A stretch of 64,000 bases of DNA from Desulfosoma sp. (GTDB lineage: Bacteria; Desulfobacterota; Syntrophobacteria; Syntrophobacterales; DSM-9756). Below are positions 6,826 through 31,489 of this stretch, piece by piece. Under the pieces are notes generated by a model. The model saw only the letters and a list, made by a program, of their open reading frames with translations. It was not told the origin of the DNA and ran no database searches. Within the stretch, counting starts at the first letter, position 1; every line of letters starts with the position of its first letter. The stretch is from contig JBBFKW010000009.1 of assembly GCA_037481835.1 (NCBI GenBank), positions 32,001 to 96,000 of the forward strand. Direction: 5' to 3'. The position numbers and the translations under genes were made by a program.

Positions 6826-7869
6826 ATGGCTTACCCGTTTCGCAATCTCGTGTTTGAAGGCGGCGGCATGAAGGGCATCGCCTACGTGGGCGCGCTCCAG
6901 GTCTTGGAAGAAAAAGATATCCTGTCCCGAATCCTCCGAGTCGGGGGCACCTCGGCAGGGGCCATCACCGCCGTTATGGTGGGACTGAATTACAGCCCGG
7001 CCGAAATCTGGGATGCGGTGAGTTCCATGGACTTCGGCACGTTCATGGACGACGATTTCGGCGTCGTGCGGGACATGAACCGGCTCATCCACGAATTCGG
7101 TTGGTACAAAGGCAACGCCTTCCGCACCTGGATCGGGGACGTCATCGCCCGAAAGACCGGAAACCCCAACGCCACATTCCTCCAAGTGCAGCAGCAAAAG
7201 AGCGCCAAAGGTTTCCGGGACATGTACTTTATGGGCACCAACATCTGCACCCATTTTTGCGAAGTCTTTTCGCACGAACACACGCCTCGGATGTGCGTGG
7301 CGGACGCCGTCCGCATTTCCATGTCCATCCCCCTGTTTTTCACCTGCCGTCGAAGCCCCCGGGGCGACGTCTATGTGGACGGCGGCGTGCTCGACAATTA
7401 CCCCATCAAGATCTTCGATCGCATGCGGTATCTGGATCCGGCCGTGGCGGACATCCACGGCCGCATGACGGACTATTACCGCCGGCACAACACCAGCTTG
7501 AAGCGCAGGGGGATCGAGGTGAGTCCCTATGTCTACAACAAGGAAACCCTGGGCTTTCGGCTGGATTCGGCGCGCGAAATCGCCGTCTTCCGAGACCAGG
7601 CGGAACCTGTGCCGGAAACCGTGGACGATTTCTTTTCCTACTGCTTCAACCTGCTCCAGACCCTCCTCAACGCCCAGTCCAACACCCACCTCCACAACGA
7701 CGACTGGCAGCGCACCATCTACATCGACACCCTCGGCGTAAAAACAACGGACTTCAAGATATCCAAGGCGCGAAAGACCGCCCTCGTCCAGTCGGGCCGA
7801 AAAGGCACCGAGACCTACTTCGCCTGGTACGACGACCCGGCGAGTAATCCCGTAAACCGCCCGAACTGA
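6826..7869 (+). CDS. Patatin-like phospholipase
   Basis: AGGAGG RBS; EGGGMKG oxyanion loop, GTSAG nucleophile, DGG catalytic Asp. Confidence 0.92.
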   Translation: MAYPFRNLVFEGGGMKGIAYVGALQVLEEKDILSRILRVGGTSAGAITAVMVGLNYSPAEIWDAVSSMDFGTFMDDDFGVVRDMNRLIHEFGWYKGNAFRTWIGDVIARKTGNPNATFLQVQQQKSAKGFRDMYFMGTNICTHFCEVFSHEHTPRMCVADAVRISMSIPLFFTCRRSPRGDVYVDGGVLDNYPIKIFDRMRYLDPAVADIHGRMTDYYRRHNTSLKRRGIEVSPYVYNKETLGFRLDSAREIAVFRDQAEPVPETVDDFFSYCFNLLQTLLNAQSNTHLHNDDWQRTIYIDTLGVKTTDFKISKARKTALVQSGRKGTETYFAWYDDPASNPVNRPN

Positions 7870-20095: not shown

Positions 20096-20653
20096 GTGAC
20101 CGACCTGGATCTTGTGGCCCTCATGACGGAAAAAGCGCGGTCGGTGCAGACCGTTGTGGAACAGTGCCCCCACTGGGCCGCCGTGGTGAGATACACTGTG
20201 GAACTTACGGCGGCTCAGGGCGGCCCCACCATCGCCCCATGGGGCCTGCCCGAAGAAGTTCGCGACATGCTCGCCAACGGCGCCTCGGAAAAAGGCCTTC
20301 GCCTTCTCGATCCCCCGTTTCGCGCCTCCCTGGAAGAAATCCACACGGCGATCACCCGCGCCGACTGGGGCATCGCCGAAACGGGCACGGTGGTCCTGGA
20401 TTCCACGGCGGAAGATCTCCGCATCGCCACCATGCTGTCCGAAACCCACGTAATCGTGCTTCCTCAAGGCCGCCTCCGGCGCTCCTCTTTTGACGTGGCT
20501 GAAGCCGTCAAGGCTTGGCATCGGGAGCCTCCCCGCTATGTGGCCTTTATTTCCGGGGCGAGTCGCACAGCGGACATCGAACGGGTTCTGACCATCGGGG
20601 TGCATGGGCCTCAGCACCTGCACCTTCTTATCCTCCAGGAGGGGGCCTCATGA
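20096..20653 (+). CDS. lutC: LUD-domain lactate utilisation protein (LutC/LldG)
   Basis: GIAETGT and FISGASRTADIERVLTIGVHGP; GGAGG RBS before GTG. Confidence 0.9.
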   Translation: MTDLDLVALMTEKARSVQTVVEQCPHWAAVVRYTVELTAAQGGPTIAPWGLPEEVRDMLANGASEKGLRLLDPPFRASLEEIHTAITRADWGIAETGTVVLDSTAEDLRIATMLSETHVIVLPQGRLRRSSFDVAEAVKAWHREPPRYVAFISGASRTADIERVLTIGVHGPQHLHLLILQEGAS

Positions 20654-22821
20654 CGACTCAGGCGCCTCAAGACGTGAAAACTTACCGCAGGCAGCTCCGC
20701 CGAGCCCTCGACAACGCCTTTTTGCGTCAGACCCTGGACACTTTCGCGGCGGCGTATCGGGAATCCCGTGCCCGAGCCTTTGAAGGCATCGACCTGGAAG
20801 GGCTCATCGCCGACATCGCCCGCCGGAAAGCTTCGGCGCTGCCGCGGCTGGAAGAGCTTTTTGAGGAATTCAAACGCCGGGCGGAAGCGGCCGGGGCCGT
20901 GGTCCATTCGGCCGCAACGGCCCGGGAAGCTAACGAACTCATTGCCCGGATCGCCAGGGAAAACGGGGTGCGCACGATCATCAAGTCCAAGTCCATGACC
21001 GCCGAAGAAACCTTCCTCAACGCGCACCTGGAAGGGGAAGGCTTTGAGGTGACGGAAACGGACCTGGGCGAATGGATCATTCAGCTGCGCCGCGAAGGCC
21101 CGTCCCACATGGTGCTTCCGGCCATCCACCTGTCCCGCCATCAGGTGGCCGAACTCTTCGAAAAGGTGACCGGGGAGCGACAGGATCCCGACGATATCGA
21201 AAAGATGGTGAAAGTGGCCCGGCGCACCTTGCGCCGAGCCTTCCTGGAAGCGGACATGGGGATTTCCGGGGCGAACTTCGCCGTGGCCGAATCGGGCACC
21301 CTAGGCCTGGTGACCAATGAAGGCAACGCCCGGCTGGTCACCACGCTGCCTCGGGTCCACGTGGCCTTGGTGGGTTACGACAAGCTCCTGCCGGATATGG
21401 AAACCGCTCTGACCATTCTGAAAGCGCTGCCGCGAAACGCCACGGGCCAGATCATTTCCACCTACGTGACCTGGATCACCGGCGCCACGCCCTGTGCGGC
21501 ATCACCCACGGGGCGAAAGATTCTGCACATCATCTTTTTGGATAACGGCCGGCTGCAGCTGGCGAAAGACCCCGTTTTTTCCCAGGCGCTGCAGTGCGTG
21601 CGCTGCGGGGCGTGCGCCAATGTGTGCCCCATCTACCGCCTGGTGGGCGGGCACCATTACGGCCATGTCTACATCGGCGCCATCGGGCTCATCCTCACGG
21701 CCTTCTACCACGGCGTGGAAAACGCCCGCGCCCTGGTCATGAACTGCCTCAACTGCCAGGCCTGCAAAGCGGTCTGCCCCGCTGGGATCGATCTCCCCTA
21801 TCTCATCAAGAACGCCGTGCGCCACGTGCTGGAGCGTGAAAAACGGCGCCCGGTGAAAAACCTGCTCTTGTCCAAGGTGCTCAAGGACCGGAAGCTTTTC
21901 CATTTCCTGCTGCGCCGAGCGGCCCTCGCCCAGAAGCCCTTGGCGGGAAAAGAGCCCCTCATCCGCCATTTGCCGCTCTTTTTCGACAAGACGCACGGGT
22001 TTCGAAGCCTTCCTGTGATCCAAGCCGTGCCTTTTCGGGACCGATGGGAACGGACCCGTCCGCCGGTGGCCGATCCCGCCATGCGGGTCACGTTGTTCGG
22101 CGGCTGCTTGATCGACTTCGTCTATCCGGAGCAGGCGGAAGCAGTGCTTCCGCTTCTTTCGGATCACCGCGTGGCCGTGGACTTCCCCCCGGGCCAAACC
22201 TGCTGCGGCCTTCCGGCGCTCATGGCCGCGGAGAAGGAGACGGCCCGAGATGTGGCCTTGCAGAATCTGCGCGCCGTGGACCTGGACCGCTCCGACTGGA
22301 TCCTGACCCTGTGTGCCTCGTGCGGTTCCCACATGAAGGAAAACTACCCCAAGCTTCTGGGGGACGACCCGGTGTGGGGGGAACGGGTGCGGCGTTTCGC
22401 GGAGAAAGTCATCGATTTCAGCTCGTTTCTCAAAAACGTGTTGAAGGTATCCCCTGAAGATTTCGCCCCGTCGTCGCAAAAGACGGCATACCACGCCCCC
22501 TGTCATCTGTGCCGGGGGTTGAAGGTGGTGGAGGCCCCGCGGGAGCTTCTAAAAACCGCCGGTTGGGATTATGTGCCCACCAAGGACGAAGATGTGTGCT
22601 GCGGCTTCGGGGGATCGTATTCCTTGGAATTTCCGGAAATTTCGGCGGAACTCCTCAAGCGGAAATTGGACCATGTAGAGGCGTCGGGAGCCGACATGCT
22701 GGTGACCGACTGCCCGGGGTGCGTCCTTCAGCTTCGCGGCGGAGCCGACAAGCAGGGCCGCCGTTTCCGGGTCTGCCACATCGCCGAAGCCGTCGCCCGA
22801 ACGTACCGGAAAAGCCGCTAA
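20650..22821 (+). CDS. ldhH: L-lactate dehydrogenase large subunit, LutB-LutA fusion (LldH/LdhH)
   Basis: KSKSMTAEE, ETDLGEWIIQL, PSHMVLPAIH, CVRCGACANVCP, then two CCG domains (QTCCG, DVCCGFGG). Confidence 0.92.
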   Translation: MTTQAPQDVKTYRRQLRRALDNAFLRQTLDTFAAAYRESRARAFEGIDLEGLIADIARRKASALPRLEELFEEFKRRAEAAGAVVHSAATAREANELIARIARENGVRTIIKSKSMTAEETFLNAHLEGEGFEVTETDLGEWIIQLRREGPSHMVLPAIHLSRHQVAELFEKVTGERQDPDDIEKMVKVARRTLRRAFLEADMGISGANFAVAESGTLGLVTNEGNARLVTTLPRVHVALVGYDKLLPDMETALTILKALPRNATGQIISTYVTWITGATPCAASPTGRKILHIIFLDNGRLQLAKDPVFSQALQCVRCGACANVCPIYRLVGGHHYGHVYIGAIGLILTAFYHGVENARALVMNCLNCQACKAVCPAGIDLPYLIKNAVRHVLEREKRRPVKNLLLSKVLKDRKLFHFLLRRAALAQKPLAGKEPLIRHLPLFFDKTHGFRSLPVIQAVPFRDRWERTRPPVADPAMRVTLFGGCLIDFVYPEQAEAVLPLLSDHRVAVDFPPGQTCCGLPALMAAEKETARDVALQNLRAVDLDRSDWILTLCASCGSHMKENYPKLLGDDPVWGERVRRFAEKVIDFSSFLKNVLKVSPEDFAPSSQKTAYHAPCHLCRGLKVVEAPRELLKTAGWDYVPTKDEDVCCGFGGSYSLEFPEISAELLKRKLDHVEASGADMLVTDCPGCVLQLRGGADKQGRRFRVCHIAEAVARTYRKSR

Positions 22822-23045: not shown

Positions 23046-25040
23046 CTATAATTTCTTAAGGGCCTCGCGGGCTTCTTCGGCCCGCACGTAAATGTGCGGG
23101 GCCACGCCGCGCTTGGCCAAAGCATCTCCCAATTTCATGCGCAGAAAGGCGCTTGTGGTGTATCGCGTGACCCCCGAATAGTAATGGTCCACCAAATACT
23201 TCACCATGTCCGTGTAAGGATCCACCACGTCCGGAAAAATCGTGAAATTGTCATAATTGACGATGGCATAAACCCGGTGTCCCAAGGGCTTGAGAATCTT
23301 CTCCACCGCCTCCCGGATGGTTTCGACTTCTTCCAACGTCTTGACGCTGAACCCTTCGAAATTGACGAAAAAGAGATTCTCCTTTGGATCGTACACGAGC
23401 CGCTCCTCCAACGGCAGGGAAAGGAGATCCGTCTTGAGGTCCATGGGCTCATCCCAAAAGATGCGATCGTCCATGAGGCGCGGTGTGTTTCGGATGATGG
23501 GCGTGAAATCCATGTGGGCCAAGATATCCCGCTCCAGGTCCACGCCGGGGGCGATCTCGATCAATTCCAGCCCTCCCTCGGTCAAGGCGAACACGCACCG
23601 CTCCGTCACATACAGGACGGGTTTCTTGCGACGGCGGGCGTAGGCGCCGCTGAAGGTGACGTGCTCCACCCGATCCACAAACTTTTTCGCCTTTCCCTCT
23701 TGGAGGATGCGCAGCGCGCCGTCCTCCACAATCATCTTTACGCCTCCGGCCGTGAAGGTCCCCATGAAAACCACTTTTTTGGCGCTCTGGCTGATGTTGA
23801 TAAACCCGCCGGCTCCGGCGATCTTCGGCCCGAACTTGCTCACGTTCACATTCCCTTGAGCGTCCGCCTGAGCCATCCCGAGGAACGCGATGTCCAAACC
23901 GCCGCCGTCATAAAAATCGAATTGGGCCGTCTGGTCGATGACCGCGTCGGTGTTGACGGCGGCCCCAAAGTTCAGCCCTCCGGCGGGCATGCCGCCGATG
24001 ACGCCCGGTTCGGCCGTCAGAGTGAGGTATTCCAGGATCTTTTCTTCCACGGCCACGTTGGCCACCCCTTCCGGCATGCCGATCCCCAGGTTCACCACGC
24101 TGTTGGCCTTCAGTTCAAAGGCGGCCCGCCGTGCGATGATTTTCCTTTCGTTCAACGGCATGGGGGGCACGGTAGTCATGGGCACTCGGATCTCGCAGGA
24201 AAACGCCGGGTTGTAGGGTGCGGCGAAGGTCTGCCAATGGTTTTCCGCAGAGGCCACCACGATGCAATCCACCAAGATACCGGGAATCTTGACCTGGCGG
24301 GCGTTCAGGGTGCCACGTTCGGCGATGCGTTCCACCTGGGCGATGACAAAGCCGCCGCTGTTTCGGGCGGCGGTGGCCAAGGAAAGGGTTTCCAAGGTCA
24401 AAGCCTCCCGTTCCATGGTGATGTTGCCGTCGGTGTCCGCCGTCGTTCCCCGGATGATGGCCACATGGATGGGAAAGGTTTTGTAGGCGAGGATCTCTTC
24501 GCCGTCGATGACCATGAGCTCCACCAGGTCTTCTGTGGTAATGTCGTTGAGTTTCCCGCCGCCGTTTCGCGGATCCACAAAAGTGCCGAGCCCCACGGTG
24601 GTGAGGGTTCGTGGCTTCTTTGCAGCGATATCCCGATACATGTGGGTGATGACGCCCTGCGGCAGGTTGTACGCCTCGATCTTGTTCTCCATGGCCAGTC
24701 GCTGCAGCTTGGGCACCAGTCCCCAGTGCCCTCCCACGACGCGCTTCACAAGCCCCTCATGTCCCAAGTGGTTCAACCCCCGTTCTTTGCCGTCGCCTTG
24801 GCCCGCGGCGTAAAAAAGGGTCAGGTCCCGGGGTCTTCCCGTGGTCAGAAACCGTTTTTCCAACGCCACGGCCACCTCCTCGGCAAAACCGATCCCCACG
24901 AACCCCCCCGTGGCCACGGTATCCCCGTCACGGATCACCTGCACGGCCTCCTGGGCGCTGACGATTTTCCCCTTCCGGGTCCTCTGGGGCGGATAGGGAG
25001 AAAGGAAAGGGTGCGTTCCGGAGATGACCTGATCCGTCAT
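23046..25040 (-). CDS. Acyl-CoA:acetate/propionate CoA-transferase (fused family I) with C-terminal extra domain
   Basis: [28 protein letters not shown] (catalytic Glu), [18 protein letters not shown]. Confidence 0.92.
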
Positions 25041-25267
25041 GGGAACTCCTCTAACCAGTTGGTCATTTTCCCAAATGTTCGAGCCAAGCGCCTCTTTGAC
25101 GTGAACAAACCCTGGGAGCACGCGGCAAACTGCATGTGGAACGTGTGACCCTACTTCCAAGCTTGCTCAATATCATCGGTGAATACCTACCAAATCGAGG
25201 CCAGGCTTTCAAACGCAAAGGCTTGGCAAACGCTCCGCATACGTCGCCCTCACCGAGACCGTTCCCT

Positions 25268-25879
25268 TTACGGGACTACCCCGTGCTCTTCCAGGAAAAG
25301 ACTCAAGCCCTGGGGGTCCCGGTAGAGGTGGGAGACAATGCCGAGGGAGCGGGCGGCCTCCACGTTTTCCGGCGCATCATCCACAAAGAGGGCCTGAGGG
25401 GGCGCAACATGGAGTCTTTCAAGAGTCGTGATGTAGGCTTGGGGAAAAGGCTTTCGCACCCCCTCTTCGGCGGAACAAAACACCGCGTGGAAAAAGCACA
25501 GGACGTCCCAACGCTCAAGCCATGCCTTCAACCCTTTGGGCGCGTTGGAAAGGACGGCCAGCGGCACACGGCCGTAGAGGCGCCGGATGATGCGGATGAC
25601 GGGCTCGTTGGGCCGCTCGTCCGCATCGTAACGGGCCCGGAAAGCAGCAACGGCTTCCGCACTGCGCAGGTTCAGGCGCGGTCCCATGATCCGCCAGTAA
25701 TCGTCCAGGCTCAAGCGCCCCGTCAAGGTGTCTTCCCAGGCCGGATCGTCGAACATTATCCGGTTGATACTTCCGCGGGGCAGGCCCAAATCCCGTTCGT
25801 AACTTTCAAAGAGCGAAGCCGGCTTGGGGGCGGAAATGACCCGCCCGAAATCGAAAAGAACCGCCCGCGGTGCGCCCAT
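25268..25879 (-). CDS. HAD-family phosphatase
   Basis: LFDFGRVI (motif I), LSN, KP, FVDDAPENVEAA (motif IV). Confidence 0.88.
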   Translation of the reverse strand: MGAPRAVLFDFGRVISAPKPASLFESYERDLGLPRGSINRIMFDDPAWEDTLTGRLSLDDYWRIMGPRLNLRSAEAVAAFRARYDADERPNEPVIRIIRRLYGRVPLAVLSNAPKGLKAWLERWDVLCFFHAVFCSAEEGVRKPFPQAYITTLERLHVAPPQALFVDDAPENVEAARSLGIVSHLYRDPQGLSLFLEEHGVVP

Positions 25880-25959
25880 CGCCTTGTCATCCTTTCCAAC
25901 AAATCTTAATTTCCCCGTTGCCAATACCGAAACGTGAAATCGGCAAGGGGTTCATCGAA

Positions 25960-27438
25960 ATGGACCGAAACTCAGCCCACGGCGTCTCCCGACCCGCCCC
26001 CATGGGATCCCTGGTCCTCATGGGGTCGGGGGAATTGTCTCCCAGCATGGTGGAAGTCCACAAGGCCCTGCTCCACGCCAAAGGGCCGGGCGCTTCCGCC
26101 GTATTTATTGACACGCCCGCCGGATTTCAACCCAACGTGGACGACATTTCCCGGCGCGCGCAAGACTACTTCAGCACTCGAGTGGGCCGGCCCCTGGAGG
26201 TCGCCTCCTTGAAATCCCGCAAGGACATGGAAACCCTTCAGGGACGCCACGCCCTGAAACTCATGGCGTCCGCGGACTACCTCCTCATGGGTCCCGGAAG
26301 CCCCACCTACGCGGCCCGGCAATGGATCGGATCCCCCGTCCCGGAAATCCTTCGATCCCGGATCCACGACGGAGCGGTGGTGGCGGCGGCCAGCGCCGCG
26401 GCCCTCACCGTGGGATGGAAGACGCTTCCCGTCTACGAAATCTACAAGGTGGGCATGGACCTTCACTGGGCGGATGGAATGGATCTCTTAGGCCCGTGGG
26501 GTTTTCGCCTGGTCGTCGTCCCTCATTGGAACAACGCCGAAGGCGGCACGCACGACACGCGCTTTTGCTACATGGGGGAAGAACGCTTCCGGATCCTGGA
26601 ACGCCTTCTTCCCTGGGACGCCATCGTGGTGGGTATCGATGAGCATACGGCCTTGGTTGTGGATTTCGCCCGGAACCGGGCTGAGGTTCGAGGGCTCGGG
26701 ACGGTGACCCTGCGAAAACCGCCAGGGCCTGGATCCCCGATTATGCCCGCTTCGACGGAATCCGGCACGCCGCCGGCTTTATCCTTGGGAGATGCTATCG
26801 CACAGGCCCGCGGGCCGGCTTTATCCGAACGTGTTGGTGAAAAGGGGGCCGTCCCCGGGATGGAAAGAATTTTTCGGACGGGAGAAACGTTTCCCTTGGA
26901 CCTTCTCCGGGATTTTTCCACGGCCGCCGCCCCGACACAGGACCTGAAAGAGCCTTTGGCATCGCCATGGGCGAGGGACGACGAGCCGCCGGCCGGTCGG
27001 GACGAGCCCACTCCAGAACCGGAAGGAAGCGCCGCCCCATCGGAGGAGGATTTCTGGGGCGAAGTGCGGCGGCTGGAATCGGCTTTCGAACAAGGACTGG
27101 AAGATCGTCTCCCTGAGAATGCCGCCCGGGGACTTCTGGAGCTGGACCGCCTTTTGTGGGACGCCCTCCGGCACGGCGCCGCCCCCGAAGACCTGTCCCA
27201 AGGGCGGGAACTTTTCCGAGAATGGATCGTTTTGGCGGCGCAGCGCCTGCCCCTTTCCCCCAGGGACACCCATGCCGTCCTTTCACCTCTGGTGGACGAT
27301 CTCGTCCGGCTGCGAGGGCGCCTTCGTGAAAAGCGTCTGTGGGATGCCGCCGATGCCGTGCGATCCCTGCTTGCTTCCTACGGCGTCGTCGTGGAAGATA
27401 CGCCGACGGGATCTCGGTGGCGCTGGACGCATGAGTGA
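25960..27438 (+). CDS. Peptidase S51/cyanophycinase-like (class I GATase-like fold) domain fused to a CysRS-type anticodon-binding domain
   Basis: LMGSGE, GPGSP, AASAAA (nucleophile elbow), VPHWNN, GIDEHTA. C-terminus LREKRLWDAADAVRSLLASYGVVVEDTPTGSRWR resembles the CysRS C-terminal AD..R..L...G..+ED...G..W motif. Confidence 0.8.
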   Translation: MDRNSAHGVSRPAPMGSLVLMGSGELSPSMVEVHKALLHAKGPGASAVFIDTPAGFQPNVDDISRRAQDYFSTRVGRPLEVASLKSRKDMETLQGRHALKLMASADYLLMGPGSPTYAARQWIGSPVPEILRSRIHDGAVVAAASAAALTVGWKTLPVYEIYKVGMDLHWADGMDLLGPWGFRLVVVPHWNNAEGGTHDTRFCYMGEERFRILERLLPWDAIVVGIDEHTALVVDFARNRAEVRGLGTVTLRKPPGPGSPIMPASTESGTPPALSLGDAIAQARGPALSERVGEKGAVPGMERIFRTGETFPLDLLRDFSTAAAPTQDLKEPLASPWARDDEPPAGRDEPTPEPEGSAAPSEEDFWGEVRRLESAFEQGLEDRLPENAARGLLELDRLLWDALRHGAAPEDLSQGRELFREWIVLAAQRLPLSPRDTHAVLSPLVDDLVRLRGRLREKRLWDAADAVRSLLASYGVVVEDTPTGSRWRWTHE

Positions 27439-28453
27439 GGACGCACGGGTGAAGGTGGAAACGGAATCTCTCGCGGTGATGCACGCCGATCGGCTGGATC
27501 CGTTGTGGGGTCTGTGGCACGACCGCCGGGATGTGTTTCGGCGGGCGCCTCTTTTCGTCACGCCGCCGTGGCTCGGCGCCTGGAAAGAAACCCTCGGCCG
27601 GGACGCCGCGCTCAGCGTGCTCATCGCATCAGCCCACGATGCCATCATGGGAGTCCTCCCCCTCATGCGGCAAGGACGCCTCGGCGTTTTCGCCGGAGAT
27701 CCCCAGGTGTGCGACTATTTCGATGCAGTAATGGTTCCCGGCGGCGAAGACGCCGCCTGGCGGGCGTTTTTGCGGGAAGCCCGCCGCTCGGGGCTGGAGG
27801 CCTTGGACCTTTTTCCCGTTCGACCCGATTCCGCCGTCTTGACCCATGGCGTGCCGCTGTGCGAGGCTCTGGGCGTTCCCGTTTCCGTGGAACGTTGCGA
27901 TGTCACGGTGGAAATGCCCCTTGCGGGATCGTGGGAGGCGTATCTTTCGGGCCTTTCGGGAAAACAGCGCCACGAAGTGCGCCGAAAGATGCGCCGTTTG
28001 GAAGAAGCGGGCGCGGTTCGGTTCAGGGCTGTGAGCGATGCCGCCGAAACCGACGGGGCTCTGGAAGTTTTTTTCCGCCTGTTTCAAAGCAACCGGGAAG
28101 ACAAGGCCCGTTTTCTCACCCCCGCCGTGAAGGCCTACATGGAAACCCTGTGCCGGGCCATGAGCCGCGAGGGAATGATGCGCCTGTGCTTTCTCGATGT
28201 GAACGGAACGCCGGCGGCGTCCGCCCTTTGTTTTGATGACGGCGAAACGGTTTCCCTTTATAACAACGGCTACGACGCCTCATTGGCTTCCGTGAGCGTC
28301 GGGCTTGTGAACACCATCCACACCATCAAGGACGCCGTGGAACGGGGTCGCCGCCGCTACGAGTTTTTGCGGGGAGACGAAATTTACAAGTTCCGGCTGG
28401 GAGGTCGTGAAGTTCCCTTGTATCGCGTGCGGATCGCTCTCGAGGCCGGCTGA
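27431..28453 (+). CDS. GNAT-fold protein (CelD/BcsL-like, related to the FemAB fold)
   Basis: FVTPPWLGAW, CDYFD, SWEAYLSGLSGKQRHEVRRKMRRL, YNNGYD, YEFLRGDEIYKFRLG; start overlaps the previous stop. Confidence 0.88.
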   Translation: MSEDARVKVETESLAVMHADRLDPLWGLWHDRRDVFRRAPLFVTPPWLGAWKETLGRDAALSVLIASAHDAIMGVLPLMRQGRLGVFAGDPQVCDYFDAVMVPGGEDAAWRAFLREARRSGLEALDLFPVRPDSAVLTHGVPLCEALGVPVSVERCDVTVEMPLAGSWEAYLSGLSGKQRHEVRRKMRRLEEAGAVRFRAVSDAAETDGALEVFFRLFQSNREDKARFLTPAVKAYMETLCRAMSREGMMRLCFLDVNGTPAASALCFDDGETVSLYNNGYDASLASVSVGLVNTIHTIKDAVERGRRRYEFLRGDEIYKFRLGGREVPLYRVRIALEAG

Positions 28454-28464
28454 GGCGCCGGCCC

Positions 28465-29853
28465 ATGGATGGAAAATTCATGCGCGAATCGCCCTTTTTT
28501 TTGGACGAGGCCGTAAACCCCGGGAAAACGGCGCCTCGGCTGCGCATCGCCGTGCTCTGCGCCCATTCCCACCCTTTGGGCCCCCTGGGACGGCGGGATA
28601 CGGGCGGCATGAGCGTCTACATCCGGGAAATGTCGCGGGCCGTGGCCGCCCGAGGACACCGGGTGGATCTCTTCGTGGGCGAGCCCCCTCGGGGGCTGGG
28701 TTCCCAAGGGTCTGAATACACCAAACAGGAACTCGAAGACCACCTCGGGCCCAACGTGCACTGGGTGTCTGTCCCTTGCGAAACCGCAGCGCCTCGCGAC
28801 CCGCTTGAACAGGTGAAGACGGCCGAGGCATTCCGGCGAGCTGTCCTTGGCGCGTGCCGGGGAAGGCGCCCTTTCGACCTCGTTTTCAGTCACTACTGGC
28901 TTTCGGGCCTTGCCGGCCTTTACACCGCCCAGGCCCTTGGGGCGCCGCACGTGGTCATGTTCCATACGCTCGCTCAGTCCAAAACGGAGGCTCTGGGCCG
29001 TTCCGTGGACGCCCCGTGCCGTCTCTGTGCGGAAAGGCTCGTGGCCGCTCGAAGCCATGGGGTCGTGGCGGCCACGGAACGGGAAAAGGACGTCCTGGAA
29101 ACGCACTACGGGGTGCATGCGGAACGCGTCGCGGTGGTGCCTTGCGGCGTCGATATGCATGTGTTCCGTCCCGGGGACGGCTTCGGTGCCCGCAAGCGCT
29201 TGGGACTGCCCCTGGATGCGGCGGTCTTCCTCTTCGTCGGCCGTCTCGATCCCGTGAAAGGGTTGGATCGGCTCTTGGACGCCTTTTCCCGCCTGCCCCG
29301 ATCCGTCCCCGCCCGGCTGGTGGTTGTGGGGGGAGACGCCTCGGAAGAGGAACGGCTCAAAGAATTTCGGGACCTGGCAGAAACGCTGGGCGTCTCGAAG
29401 CAGGTCATTTTCTCCGGGCGCATCGACCATTGCCGCCTTCCGGACTTCTATGCCGCCGCCGACGCGCTCGTCGTGGCCTCCCACTACGAAAGCTTCGGCC
29501 TCGTCGCTTTGGAAGCCTTGGCGTCGGGACGGCCCGTCATCGGCCCTCCCGTGGGCGTGCTCCCCGAAGTGCTCTCGTCACCGGTCTGCGGCGTTCTTCT
29601 GGAGGACAACTCGGCACAGCACCTCCTGGGCGGCATGACGATCCTTCTGGAGCGGAAGGGACGGCAGCGGAACGGCGAGGCGGCGCTTCGCCGTAGGATC
29701 GCCCGCCGCTACAGCTGGGATCGGGTCGCCCACGATCTGGAACGATGCTTTCATCGAGTCTTGGAAACATCAACGTGGCATGAAACACGAAGGACTTCTT
29801 CCCATGGATTCGGTCGATGCTCTGATTATCGCTGCGCATCCGGACGACCCTGA
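28465..29853 (+). CDS. GT4 glycosyltransferase, MshA-like
   Basis: HSHPLGPLGRRDTGGMSVYI, SHYWLSG, MFHTLAQSK, PCGVD, FVGRLDPVKG and SHYESFGLVALEALASG parallel the MshA motifs. Confidence 0.9.
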   Translation: MDGKFMRESPFFLDEAVNPGKTAPRLRIAVLCAHSHPLGPLGRRDTGGMSVYIREMSRAVAARGHRVDLFVGEPPRGLGSQGSEYTKQELEDHLGPNVHWVSVPCETAAPRDPLEQVKTAEAFRRAVLGACRGRRPFDLVFSHYWLSGLAGLYTAQALGAPHVVMFHTLAQSKTEALGRSVDAPCRLCAERLVAARSHGVVAATEREKDVLETHYGVHAERVAVVPCGVDMHVFRPGDGFGARKRLGLPLDAAVFLFVGRLDPVKGLDRLLDAFSRLPRSVPARLVVVGGDASEEERLKEFRDLAETLGVSKQVIFSGRIDHCRLPDFYAAADALVVASHYESFGLVALEALASGRPVIGPPVGVLPEVLSSPVCGVLLEDNSAQHLLGGMTILLERKGRQRNGEAALRRRIARRYSWDRVAHDLERCFHRVLETSTWHETRRTSSHGFGRCSDYRCASGRP

Positions 29854-30496
29854 ATTCGGCGCTGCAGGCACCGTGGCCGCATGGACTCGGGAAGGTCGAA
29901 GCGTCGCCTACGTCATCTGCACGGACGGAGAAAAGGGAACCAACGACCGTCGTGTGGATCCCAAGGATTTGGCCCGGATCCGCCAAGAGGAACAACGGGC
30001 CGCCGCCGCCGTGCTGGGCGTCCGGGATGTGGTCTTCCTGCATTACCCCGATCAGGGATTGGAAGAGACGCCCGAATTTCGAAAAGAGATCGTGCGCTGG
30101 ATTCGGCGGTACCGACCCCGGATTGTTTTGTCCTCGGACCCGTATCGGCGCTATCTGTGGCACCGCGACCACCGCATCGTGGGGCAGGTCGTCATGGACG
30201 CCCTGTTTCCTTACGCCCGGGACCACCTGGCCTACCCCGACCTCCTGGCGGAAGGGCTGGAACCTCACAAGGTGAAGGAAGTGTGGTTTTGGGCGGCGGA
30301 AGACATCAATCACCGGGTGGACATTTCCGAGACCTTCGATGTGAAGATCGCGGCCCTCCAGTGCCACGCCAGCCAGTGGGACGCTCATCCCGCGCGGGAC
30401 ATCCGCGCGTGGGTGGAAGAGCGGTTCCGGAAAATGGCCGAAGGGACGCCTTACACCTACGCCGAAGGATTCCACCGCGTTCTGCTCCCCGATTGA
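29804..30496 (+). CDS. PIG-L family deacetylase (MshB/BshB-like)
   Basis: AAHPDDPEFG, TDGEKG, IRQEEQRAAA, HRDHR, LQCHASQ. Alternative start at 29780. Confidence 0.92.
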   Translation: MDSVDALIIAAHPDDPEFGAAGTVAAWTREGRSVAYVICTDGEKGTNDRRVDPKDLARIRQEEQRAAAAVLGVRDVVFLHYPDQGLEETPEFRKEIVRWIRRYRPRIVLSSDPYRRYLWHRDHRIVGQVVMDALFPYARDHLAYPDLLAEGLEPHKVKEVWFWAAEDINHRVDISETFDVKIAALQCHASQWDAHPARDIRAWVEERFRKMAEGTPYTYAEGFHRVLLPD

Positions 30497-30756: not shown

Positions 30757-30795
30757 CCCTTTCCCCCTTTAGGGGGAGAGGGCAGGGTGAGGGGG
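30757..30795. repeat. REP-like element, class A (CCCTYTCCCCCTTYAGGGGGAGAGGGCAGGGTGAGGGGG)
   Basis: Near-identical copies at 35067-35105 and 35341-35379; each lies at the 3' end of a minus-strand reading frame. Confidence 0.8.
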
Positions 30796-31431
30796 CGTCC
30801 ACGTGACATCCCCGCAAAGGCCTTCCGGATAGCCTCGACCCACAAACGCCTCATAAGCCGCCCTCTCGTAACCGACGTTGGTGGGCGGCCCATGGCCGGG
30901 AAAGACCAAGACGGCGTCCGGCAACGCAAAGATCTTTTCGGCAAGGGATTGGAGAATCCGCCGGAAGGCTCCAGGCGTTTCCGTGCGGCCAGGACCGTTG
31001 GGGAAAAGCGTGTCCCCGGAAAAGAGGACGCTCCCGAAAAGAAGGCACACGCTTCCCGGCGTGTGCCCGGGGGTGTGCAGGACCCGGAGGCTGAGCGCCC
31101 CTAGGGGAACATCCCGGCCGTCTTCCAGAAAGTCATCGGGCGGCACGGGAAGACGCGGCGCATCCAGGGCATGGGCGAGCACGGGAACGGGTTTTTTTTC
31201 CAGGAAAGCCCGGAGCCCTGCGGTATGGTCTCCATGGCCGTGGGTAAGGACGACCCCTTGGGGCGGCACATCGAACCGAACCCGGGCGACGCCTTCGGGA
31301 GCGTCAATCAAAAGGGCCCGCTGGGTCGCGCGGCACACCACCTGATAGGCATTCACGCCGTAGGGGCCGAGGGTGTATCGAACCACCGCGGCATCCCCCA
31401 AGGACAACACCACCCCGTCTTTCAAAACCAT
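30769..31431 (-). CDS. MBL-fold metallo-hydrolase (glyoxalase II-like)
   Basis: THGHGDH, HTPGHTPGS, FSGDTLF, FPGHG. Confidence 0.92.
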   Translation of the reverse strand: MVLKDGVVLSLGDAAVVRYTLGPYGVNAYQVVCRATQRALLIDAPEGVARVRFDVPPQGVVLTHGHGDHTAGLRAFLEKKPVPVLAHALDAPRLPVPPDDFLEDGRDVPLGALSLRVLHTPGHTPGSVCLLFGSVLFSGDTLFPNGPGRTETPGAFRRILQSLAEKIFALPDAVLVFPGHGPPTNVGYERAAYEAFVGRGYPEGLCGDVTWTPPHPALSP

Positions 31432-31489
31432 GGCGCCCCTCTCTGTTATTGGGCAAGAGCCCGCATAGGATCGTGACCCCATCACCCCC

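Follow-up and report, generated by a model that had tools for sequence, protein, structure and literature searches.

A 64,000-nucleotide stretch of DNA from Desulfosoma sp. (assembly GCA_037481835.1, contig JBBFKW010000009.1, positions 32,001 to 96,000 of the forward strand; hereafter the window) contains at 25960-27438 a gene for a protein, here termed S51-CysS_C, in which a hydrolase-type domain of the S51 fold with a Ser-His-Glu triad is tethered to the C-terminal module of cysteinyl-tRNA synthetase (CysRS). Judging from its sequence, the protein probably works at the aminoacyl end of tRNA(Cys) and serves a low-molecular-weight thiol pathway. More specifically, though with somewhat less than an even chance, it may constitute a tRNA(Cys)-docked acyl-transfer enzyme of a mycothiol-like thiol pathway that is not described in the literature searched. 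A role on charged tRNA(Cys) is the best reading because the protein unites these two domains, conserves both the triad and the residues corresponding to anticodon contacts, is devoid of a synthetase core, and is encoded in a thiol-type operon of organisms lacking MshC and BshC.

Domain architecture of the S51-CysS_C protein

The protein comprises 492 amino acids, translated from a stop-free frame at 25960-27438 on the plus strand. A Shine-Dalgarno-like stretch (AAGGGG) lies 8 nt 5' of the ATG at 25960, while no such site precedes an in-frame ATG at 26002. The features of the gene are given below, where A1 denotes an alignment of 40 homologues and A3 the A1 family with three divergent members added.

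25960..27438 (+): whole S51-CysS_C gene, comprising S51-fold domain, tether and CysRS C-terminal module; TGA at 27436-27438 (translation, Pfam, homologues, model)
26002..26724 (+): N-terminal S51 (PepE/cyanophycinase-type) alpha/beta domain, residues ~15-255 (profile against 6nqc; Foldseek to 6nqc, PepE 6a4r and cyanophycinase 3en0/7uqw)
26392..26394 (+): Ser145 codon, within AASAAA; predicted nucleophile (unchanged throughout A1 and A3; aligned with the Ser of 6nqc)
26524..26526 (+): His189 codon, within PHWNN (unchanged throughout A1 and A3; aligned with the His of 6nqc)
26641..26643 (+): Glu228 codon, within GIDEHTA (unchanged throughout A1 and A3; aligned with the Glu of 6nqc)
26725..27039 (+): Pro/Ala-rich tether, residues ~256-360, mostly disordered (predicted local distance difference test score, pLDDT, <50 at 266-296 and 331-358; gaps in A1)
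27040..27279 (+): helical bundle equivalent to the CysRS helical-bundle/DALR region, residues ~361-440 (profile positions 289-414 against 8qhp 356-486; helices at 362-457 in the model)
27280..27423 (+): alpha/beta domain for anticodon binding (CysS_C), residues 441-488 (26.2 bits with Pfam PF23493, whose cut-off is 23; TIGR00435 positions 420-464)
27325..27363 (+): codons of Arg456, Trp461, Asp465 and Arg468, equivalent to E. coli CysRS Arg427, Trp432, Asp436 and Arg439 (identical spacing; profile alignment to 1li5)

The N-terminal domain is assigned to the S51 fold because a profile of the 40 aligned family sequences finds 6nqc, an S51 exopeptidase of solved structure (E 9.6e-9), and because the structural model finds the same relatives, both results being stronger than the Pfam score. 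In the profile alignment, Ser145, His189 and Glu228 lie opposite the SAG, PH and DE motifs of 6nqc. With a mean pLDDT of 81.7, the AlphaFold model derived from A1 shows a confident alpha/beta domain at residues 17-252, and Foldseek matched this part to 6nqc (E 8.7e-14, TM by target 0.82), PepE 6a4r (1.1e-10) and cyanophycinase 3en0 (2e-10), the matches to 6nqc, PepE and cyanophycinase ranging from E 9e-14 to 3e-7. Pfam Peptidase_S51 (PF03575) covers residues 18-235 and profile positions 1-199 of 206 at 16.4 bits, below its cut-off of 23.9, and the NCBIfam cyanophycinase model TIGR02069 yields a fragmentary match of 24 bits against a cut-off of 126.6. These low scores speak against an ordinary dipeptidase or cyanophycinase, an identity that a first-pass annotation of this DNA had named as incompatible with its proposal, and the N-domain represents a distinct subfamily of the S51 fold and no orthologue of PepE or CphB.

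In the window protein, the tether is about 70 residues longer than in typical family members owing to a Pro/Ala-rich insert (A1), and it includes a short conserved beta-hairpin (residues 302-312) that packs onto the N-domain. The helical bundle and the terminal hairpin that follow (residues 362-489) are modelled confidently by AlphaFold. Homology to CysRS is apparent from the family profile, which retrieved six CysRS chains, five of them with E values of 8.5e-8 to 2.9e-6 and one with 0.012, the match to 8qhp spanning CysRS residues 356-486, that is, the helical bundle together with the C-terminal domain. In addition, Foldseek aligned the C-terminal part of the model with the CysRS-tRNACys complex 1u0b (E 2.6e-3). 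A class-I synthetase catalytic domain was not detected in the protein by Pfam or NCBIfam, given that tRNA-synt_1e produced no match and TIGR00435 matched only at positions 420-464 of 466.

The sequence elements on which the first-pass annotation was built have thus held up. The motifs AASAAA (143-148), VPHWNN (187-192), GIDE (225-228) and WDAADAVRSLLASYGVVVEDTPTGSRW (461-487) all occur in the translation; the proposed N-terminal Ser-His-Glu domain is confirmed by family profile, AlphaFold model and Foldseek, with a conserved triad in register; the Pro/Ala-rich linker between the domains is present, and disordered in the model; the CysRS tail is aligned with CysRS by Pfam CysS_C above its cut-off, by the family profile and by Foldseek; and the missing HIGH/KMSKS synthetase core is borne out by the Pfam and NCBIfam scans.

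In E. coli CysRS, the anticodon-domain residues Arg427, Trp432, Asp436 and Arg439 were mutated for re-aiming, and Arg427 hydrogen-bonds G34, according to a 2026 study (PMC13449415). Profile positions 367-415 of the S51-CysS_C family align with residues 412-460 of 1li5 and, the two spans being equally long, the alignment can be taken as ungapped. The counterparts of these residues are Arg456, Trp461, Asp465 and Arg468, which are invariant in all 40 members of A1 and in the three divergent additions. One of the divergent members, of 370 amino acids, has lost most of the helical bundle and still keeps all four. The anticodon reader looks functional, and binding of tRNA(Cys) would be expected of it.

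Operon and conserved neighbourhood

The genes surrounding that of S51-CysS_C resemble those of mycothiol synthesis, complemented by a homologue of aminoacyl-tRNA-dependent transferases.

27431..28453 (+): Fem-type tandem-GNAT aminoacyl-tRNA transferase homologue (Acetyltransf_6; Pfam 119.8 bits; fold search of model)
28465..29853 (+): GT4 glycosyltransferase, MshA-like (245.8 bits over the full length of TIGR03449, whose cut-off is 462.5; 100.1 bits with BshA)
29780..30496 (+): PIG-L family de-N-acetylase, BshB1/MshB-like (Pfam PIG-L 119.7 bits; TIGR04001 118.1 bits, below cut-off)
25268..25924 (-): HAD-IA phosphatase, divergent, a candidate for the phosphatase step (Pfam and NCBIfam; 11 of 80 loci have a homologue close to the S51-CysS_C gene)
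30769..31485 (-): metallo-beta-lactamase-fold (MBL) hydrolase, glyoxalase-II (GloB)-like (TIGR03413, 77.5 bits, below cut-off; homologue in 13 of 80 loci)

The ATG of the Fem-type gene overlaps the stop codon of the S51-CysS_C gene by 8 nt. The PIG-L frame, if read from its first ATG, shares 74 nt with the 3' part of the GT4 gene (29780-29853), and its true start may be located further 3'; TIGR03445 reached 48.7 bits in the window context against a cut-off of 224. Counts of a promoter and terminator scan remained at shuffle level. On the upstream side of the S51-CysS_C gene, two frames judged from their translations by eye resemble a fused iron-sulfur/cysteine-rich oxidoreductase of the lactate-utilisation type (20515-22821, +) and an acetyl-CoA hydrolase/transferase-type protein (23046-25160, -).

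Synteny was assessed in 80 family loci from other species, 47 of which extend for at least 7.5 kb downstream and were used for counts. Among these 47, a GT4 gene follows in 38, a Fem-type gene in 36 and a PIG-L gene in 33, all three being present in 32. Other loci recurrently feature Ino1 (myo-inositol-1-phosphate synthase), two Gfo/Idh/MocA oxidoreductases, a His-phosphatase, HAD and MBL proteins, and Grx-TrxR. The latter, a glutaredoxin fused to a thioredoxin-reductase-type flavoprotein, is located upstream of the operon in locus L016 (4805-6046, +) and in four more loci and is a candidate disulfide reductase for the thiol. Moreover, a stand-alone short S51 paralogue of 190-283 amino acids occurs closely upstream in 21 of the 80 loci, and in 20 of these the two genes share a strand; the example at 6986-7702 (+) of L016 scores 48 bits with Peptidase_S51 and keeps the triad motifs. 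No such paralogue was found in the window or in the genome it derives from. An MshA-like GT4 match in another genome (G078, C11:14608-15849, -) is interrupted by one in-frame TGA, which could encode selenocysteine, stem from a sequencing error or mark a pseudogene.

The overlapping Fem-type gene, itself encoding an aminoacyl-tRNA transferase homologue, had gone unremarked in the first-pass annotation. The model of its product (pLDDT 91.6) resembles FemX, FemA, Sbb17 and Sba18 most closely (Z 20.4-21.8, root-mean-square deviation 3.4-4.0), followed by MprF-type synthases (Z 17.5-19.2), while acetyl-CoA-dependent tandem GNATs including MshD are more distant (Z 14.6 and 13.1, root-mean-square deviation 5.4-6.0). 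According to their entry titles, the streptothricin-type enzymes Sbb17 and Sba18 were solved with an amino-sugar acceptor. A profile of the Fem-type sequences gave no match among PDB sequences, so that the fold search alone supplied these relatives. The operon appears to encode two proteins of tRNA-related ancestry, the shared Fem fold being no proof of the donor. A Fem-type match is present in 26 of the 29 genomes that carry S51-CysS_C in a sample of 201 genomes of the phylum, one of the 26 being a pseudogene, and this co-occurrence extends to genomes in which the genes are unlinked. A further 50 carrier genomes, drawn from the 80 loci mainly for their long flanks and searched for Fem-type and MshC-like genes, include 46 with a Fem-type match.

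Size and distribution of the family

In a database homologue search, no fewer than 7,980 clusters, defined at 90% identity, belong to the S51-CysS_C family, which is encoded in at least 595 stretches of a species-level genome collection; hence, the fusion is neither a chance event nor an assembly artefact. Members typically measure about 415 amino acids, share the family-specific invariant motifs MGSGE, DTPAGF, GPGSPTY, PVYEIYKVG and PHWNNAEGGTHDTRFC (A1), and are listed in databases as 'type 1 glutamine amidotransferase-like', 'peptidase E' or cyanophycinase-like. Named members belong to Desulfosoma, Desulfacinum, Desulfobacterales, Deferrisomatales, Dissulfurispiraceae and Chloroflexota, with harmless cultured carriers such as Desulfosoma caldarium and Desulfacinum hydrothermale, and the genome loci further add Nitrospirota, Nitrospinaceae, Aminicenantaceae and Syntrophomonadaceae. 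Fusions of the family within longer proteins were absent at E<=1e-10, which is weak evidence. A literature search whose coverage did not extend to subscription journals yielded no publication describing this architecture or a glucosamine (GlcN)-inositol thiol made in a tRNA-dependent manner.

Pathway gene content and the cysteine-adding step

Matches over cut-off to MshC, BshC and MshD were each absent from all 29 carrier genomes of the sample. The genome of the window, which is 99.4% complete, possesses Ino1 and contains neither BshC nor any MshC or GshB match over cut-off. The gene content suggests that the operon specifies a mycothiol-like sugar-inositol pathway without a cysteine ligase and without an acetyltransferase.

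MshC-like genes scoring well above the level of CysRS cross-matches were observed in three of the 29 carriers (G024, G062 and G136; all sub-threshold) and in one of the 50 further carriers (G201). In G024 and G062, which belong to one genus, the MshC-type genes keep HLGH and KMSKS, lack CysS_C and score 377 and 372 bits end to end on the MshC model; the MshC-type gene at 1108-2586 of locus L148 has HLGH and KMSKS and reaches 376.5 bits end to end on TIGR03447. The gene order in both genomes is MBL gene, MshC-type gene, a Fem-type pseudogene with in-frame stops and an intact GT4 gene, and their S51-CysS_C genes are intact at other sites, having lost neither the triad nor any of the four Arg/Trp/Asp/Arg residues. 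In G201, where the MshC-like gene scores 379.5 bits, the operon runs S51-CysS_C, Gfo, Gfo, GT4, PIG-L and MBL, and no Fem-type gene was found anywhere in the genome sequence, whose completeness is not stated. Because the Fem-type gene is decayed or missing and the S51-CysS_C gene intact in three of the four carriers of an MshC-like gene, the Fem-type enzyme, rather than the S51-CysS_C protein, is the likelier equivalent of MshC. The first-pass annotation had proposed the S51-CysS_C protein itself as a replacement of MshC; the domains, the thiol operon and the absence of MshC and BshC support this proposal in part, whereas the step assigned to the protein does not fit the observation that it is the Fem-type gene that decays beside an MshC-like ligase.

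Proposed mechanism

In the pathway envisaged, Ino1, the MshA-like GT4 enzyme, a phosphatase and the PIG-L deacetylase would act in this order to provide GlcN-inositol. The first cysteine would most likely be attached to it by the Fem-type transferase from the overlapping gene, functioning as the MshC equivalent, and the S51-CysS_C protein would then most likely acylate the free amine of the attached cysteine, occupying the slot of MshD. To this end, the CysRS-derived module, consisting of helical bundle and anticodon-binding domain, would grip the GCA anticodon of Cys-tRNA(Cys), while the disordered tether, with a length of 30 to about 100 residues, would allow the domain bearing Ser145, His189 and Glu228 to reach the 3' end of the tRNA. 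Ser145 would accept the cysteinyl group as an acyl-enzyme and pass it on to the amine of the pathway intermediate, and the product would hold an aminoacyl bond of the kind that S51 enzymes normally process. For tRNA binding, covalent catalysis, transfer over hydrolysis, acceptor and product alike, this is what we infer. That the step in question is a second Cys-tRNA(Cys)-dependent transfer, proceeding via acyl-Ser145 onto the amine of the cysteine on GlcN-inositol, is a tentative assignment, to which we give rather less than an even chance.

Several observations weigh against this scheme. The assignment of steps relies on three genomes from two lineages, two of the three with 6-8% contamination, and G136 holds S51-CysS_C, Fem-type and MshC-like genes together. 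The MshA-like, PIG-L and GloB-like neighbours all score under the curated equivalog cut-offs, for which reason the acceptor (inositol phosphate) is one we infer. Furthermore, eight of the 47 long loci have no GT4, Fem-type or PIG-L gene nearby, and the 97% complete genome G042 has an S51-CysS_C gene and no Fem-type, MshA-like or PIG-L match; since the gene is present there without pathway genes, and the eight loci hint likewise, S51-CysS_C may also function outside the pathway. Conversely, 19 of the 201 genomes carry a Fem-type variant without S51-CysS_C, and in all six of these that were inspected the variant adjoins a GT4 gene; some of the six also have Ino1, MBL, PIG-L or a pair of ECF sigma and zinc anti-sigma genes close by. 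As this Fem-type/GT4 module is found in genomes without S51-CysS_C, the latter is not obligatory for it. Among same-architecture clusters of the Atlas, the few taxon-labelled members mostly belong to Actinomycetota (commonest) or Chloroflexota. A complex prediction of S51-CysS_C with the Fem-type partner scored 0.00, which is evidence neither way. Finally, on chemical grounds, a second cysteinyl group leaves an amine free again and is no obvious substitute for the acetyl cap installed by MshD.

An ECF sigma gene directly adjoins the pair of Fem-type variant and GT4 genes in two of the genomes without S51-CysS_C (L098 6268-7835 and L101 9797-10546, from G092 and G153), followed by a zf-HC2 anti-sigma gene in G092. 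In actinomycetes, SigR-RsrA controls the mycothiol genes, and the ECF/zf-HC2 arrangement recalls this system.

Alternative explanations

The S51 domain could instead serve as the MshC replacement itself: cysteine from Cys-tRNA(Cys) would be bound to Ser145 as an acyl group and then transferred to the GlcN amine of GlcN-inositol, and the Fem-type enzyme would add a second residue or a cap to the amine of the cysteine. The enzymes would then map one-to-one on the mycothiol scheme, MshC, BshC and MshD all being missing over cut-off from the 29 carriers, and the invariant triad suits such a role. The loss of the Fem-type gene from G024, G062 and G201, as a pseudogene or as a gene not found, with S51-CysS_C, GT4 and PIG-L intact, would moreover indicate that the core of the pathway dispenses with the Fem-type enzyme. 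Yet the same three genomes possess an MshC-type ligase, which ought to render S51-CysS_C redundant, and it is the Fem-type gene that has decayed. Besides, the Fem-type fold has a solved amino-sugar-acceptor precedent in Sbb17/Sba18, whereas S51 enzymes are known for aminoacyl-amide bonds. Two or more CysRS-type matches occur in 14 of the 19 genomes with the Fem-type gene only against nine of the 29 carriers, so that Fem-type/GT4 genomes without S51-CysS_C often have extra CysRS paralogues, as would fit this explanation; the enrichment is weak, given that by a hand tally 68 of 153 genomes with neither gene also reach two or more and that related genomes are not independent, and the additional paralogues are of the full-length CysRS type and not of the MshC type. 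Overall, this alternative is considered unlikely.

Rather less credible is a protein that only hydrolyses, that is, a tRNA(Cys)-specific deacylase which proofreads the donor pool of the Fem-type enzyme or edits mischarged tRNA(Cys), for example Sec-tRNA(Cys), and which may assist in delivering tRNA(Cys) to the Fem-type enzyme. Judged by their entry titles, the characterised S51 enzymes are without exception hydrolases, an anticodon anchor with a tethered catalytic domain fits a trans-acting deacylase, and the gene is kept both where ligation is probably ATP-dependent (G024, G062 and G201) and in G042, which lacks the pathway genes. Destroying Cys-tRNA(Cys) within a cysteine-consuming operon would be wasteful, however, and the tight linkage and gene overlap with biosynthetic genes are unusual for translation quality control. 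Nor is there a phyletic tie to selenium use or to selC*-type tRNACys: the editor of selenocysteine mischarged on tRNA(Cys) that the first-pass annotation had entertained finds no phyletic support, SelA being present in 188 of the 201 genomes compared to 29 for the family, and one carrier (G160) has no SelA match. An S51 peptidase or amidase of ordinary type that serves the thiol pathway, for instance by trimming or recycling an aminoacyl group in Mca-like turnover, and carries its CysRS tail as a protein-interaction or stability module that binds no tRNA, is the most improbable of these options. The S51 fold and triad are compatible with it, as are the database labels of peptidase E or cyanophycinase-like, and the tail-less paralogue upstream in 21 of 80 loci implies S51 chemistry without tRNA binding in the neighbourhood; on the other hand, the N-domain stays below the Pfam S51 cut-off and thus forms a distinct subfamily, and the invariance across several phyla, even in the short form, of the four residues matched to the E. 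coli anticodon-domain residues is hard to explain without an RNA ligand.

tRNA(Cys), selenium and CysRS paralogues

SelA occurs in 28 of the 29 carriers and is near-universal in the phylum, so that selenium use is a test without discriminating power and lends no support. A link of the family to selC*-type tRNACys was rejected, as a BLAST search with the example from the genome of the window gave about 24 strong matches in the 201 genomes, only six of them in carriers. This example is a second tRNA-Cys(GCA) of 92 nt (C21:7235-7326, -) with a long variable arm and U73, which scores 53 bits with the Rfam tRNA-Sec model; downstream of it lies a SelB-like GTPase gene (C21:4149-6113, -). In the set of 46 tRNAs found in this genome, only the anticodons for Cys and Met are duplicated. 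The tRNA is of the selC* type described by Mukai et al. (PMC5389517), and its position beside the SelB-like gene corresponds to the selC*/selB* arrangement reported for Syntrophobacterales.

CysRS-related genes are diverse among these genomes. In that of the window, a 777-residue fusion (C1:175078-177411, equivalent to L082 562-2895, +) joins a PLP-dependent domain of the cysteine-synthase type (PALP, 246 bits) to a CysRS-like part (tRNA-synt_1e 146 bits, DALR_2, CysS_C) in which no HIGH or KMSKS was seen by eye; it resembles a pseudo-synthetase and may hold tRNA(Cys) beside a cysteine-making enzyme. Frames of 771-792 amino acids with CysRS-type or MshC-model matches exist in G092, G153, G139 and G136 as well. 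G092 and G153 additionally encode a full-length CysRS paralogue fused to a C-terminal family-2 glycosyltransferase (L108 7005-9191, +; L109 6719-8887, -), which keeps HLGN or HIGN together with KMAKS, and the host genomes possess the Fem-type/GT4 module and no S51-CysS_C. In G025 and G185, a NifS/IscS-type cysteine desulfurase adjoins a second CysRS paralogue (L107 5968-9243, +; L106 7583-10947, -), and these paralogues seem active, as HIGN, KMAKS or KMSKS, and CysS_C are kept.

Comparison with known systems

With CysRS (1u0b, 1li5 and 8qhp), the S51-CysS_C protein shares a homologous C-terminal part from about residue 361 onward, including the four anticodon-domain residues targeted in E. coli CysRS. 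Unlike CysRS, it has no Rossmann-fold core, HIGH or KMSKS and hence cannot activate cysteine, and the module is tethered to an unrelated hydrolase fold. The fold and the Ser-His-Glu triad are common to S51 enzymes (PepE, CphB, 6nqc), which form an acyl-enzyme with an amino acid bearing a free amine, an arrangement that resembles an aminoacyl-tRNA ester; in contrast to them, S51-CysS_C scores below the Pfam cut-off, has its own invariant motifs and a synthetase tail, and resides in a biosynthetic operon instead of a peptide-degradation context.

The context of MshA-like GT4, PIG-L, Ino1 and phosphatase genes is reminiscent of MshC/BshC systems, and MshC and S51-CysS_C are both partly derived from CysRS. 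They represent complementary fragments, however, since MshC is the ATP-using core without an anticodon domain and S51-CysS_C the anticodon side without a core, and MshC-like genes in carriers seem to replace the Fem-type neighbour, not S51-CysS_C. To MshD, an acetyl-CoA-dependent tandem GNAT, the protein would correspond in the slot assigned to it, the acylation of the cysteine amine, whereas its fold is unrelated and its donor would be an aminoacyl-tRNA, not acetyl-CoA.

As proposed, S51-CysS_C would divert aminoacyl-tRNA from translation as a donor for an amine acceptor in the manner of FemX, FemA, MprF, Sbb17/Sba18 and the L/F-transferase. The solved Fem-family transferases have a GNAT fold, in contrast to the S51 fold of S51-CysS_C, and we know of no covalent intermediate or anticodon-binding domain in Fem-type or other aminoacyl-tRNA-dependent transferases. 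An S51-fold aminoacyl-tRNA transferase with the anticodon module of a synthetase was not encountered in the literature searched. Trans-editing deacylases (YbaK/ProXp, AlaX, DTD) likewise act in trans on the aminoacyl end of a specific tRNA; to our knowledge, they are not operon-linked to small-molecule biosynthesis. The YbaK/INS, AlaX and DTD folds are not among the Foldseek matches listed for the model, which does not thereby exclude an unlisted family.

Implications

In its fullest form, which is rather doubtful, the hypothesis holds that anaerobes of several phyla, including Desulfobacterota and Nitrospirota, make a GlcN-inositol thiol whose cysteine or cysteines come from Cys-tRNA(Cys), by means of a Fem-type enzyme and the first S51-fold aminoacyl-tRNA transferase, a catalyst with an acyl-serine intermediate and a borrowed anticodon domain. 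A relative of mycothiol would possibly result, either di-cysteinyl (a dithiol) or aminoacyl-cysteinyl. If this were true, S51-CysS_C would add a new enzyme class to the few known proteins diverting aminoacyl-tRNA from translation, namely one in which a serine acts as covalent catalyst and an anticodon reader of synthetase origin directs the enzyme to its tRNA. The ATP-dependent (MshC-like) and tRNA-dependent (Fem-type) routes to the same bond would constitute a natural case of non-orthologous replacement. Moreover, the missing low-molecular-weight thiol and its synthesis would be identified for sulfate reducers, syntrophs and Nitrospirota that lack glutathione, mycothiol and bacillithiol ligases. 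Many anaerobes may thus make a protective thiol using cysteine taken from charged tRNA.

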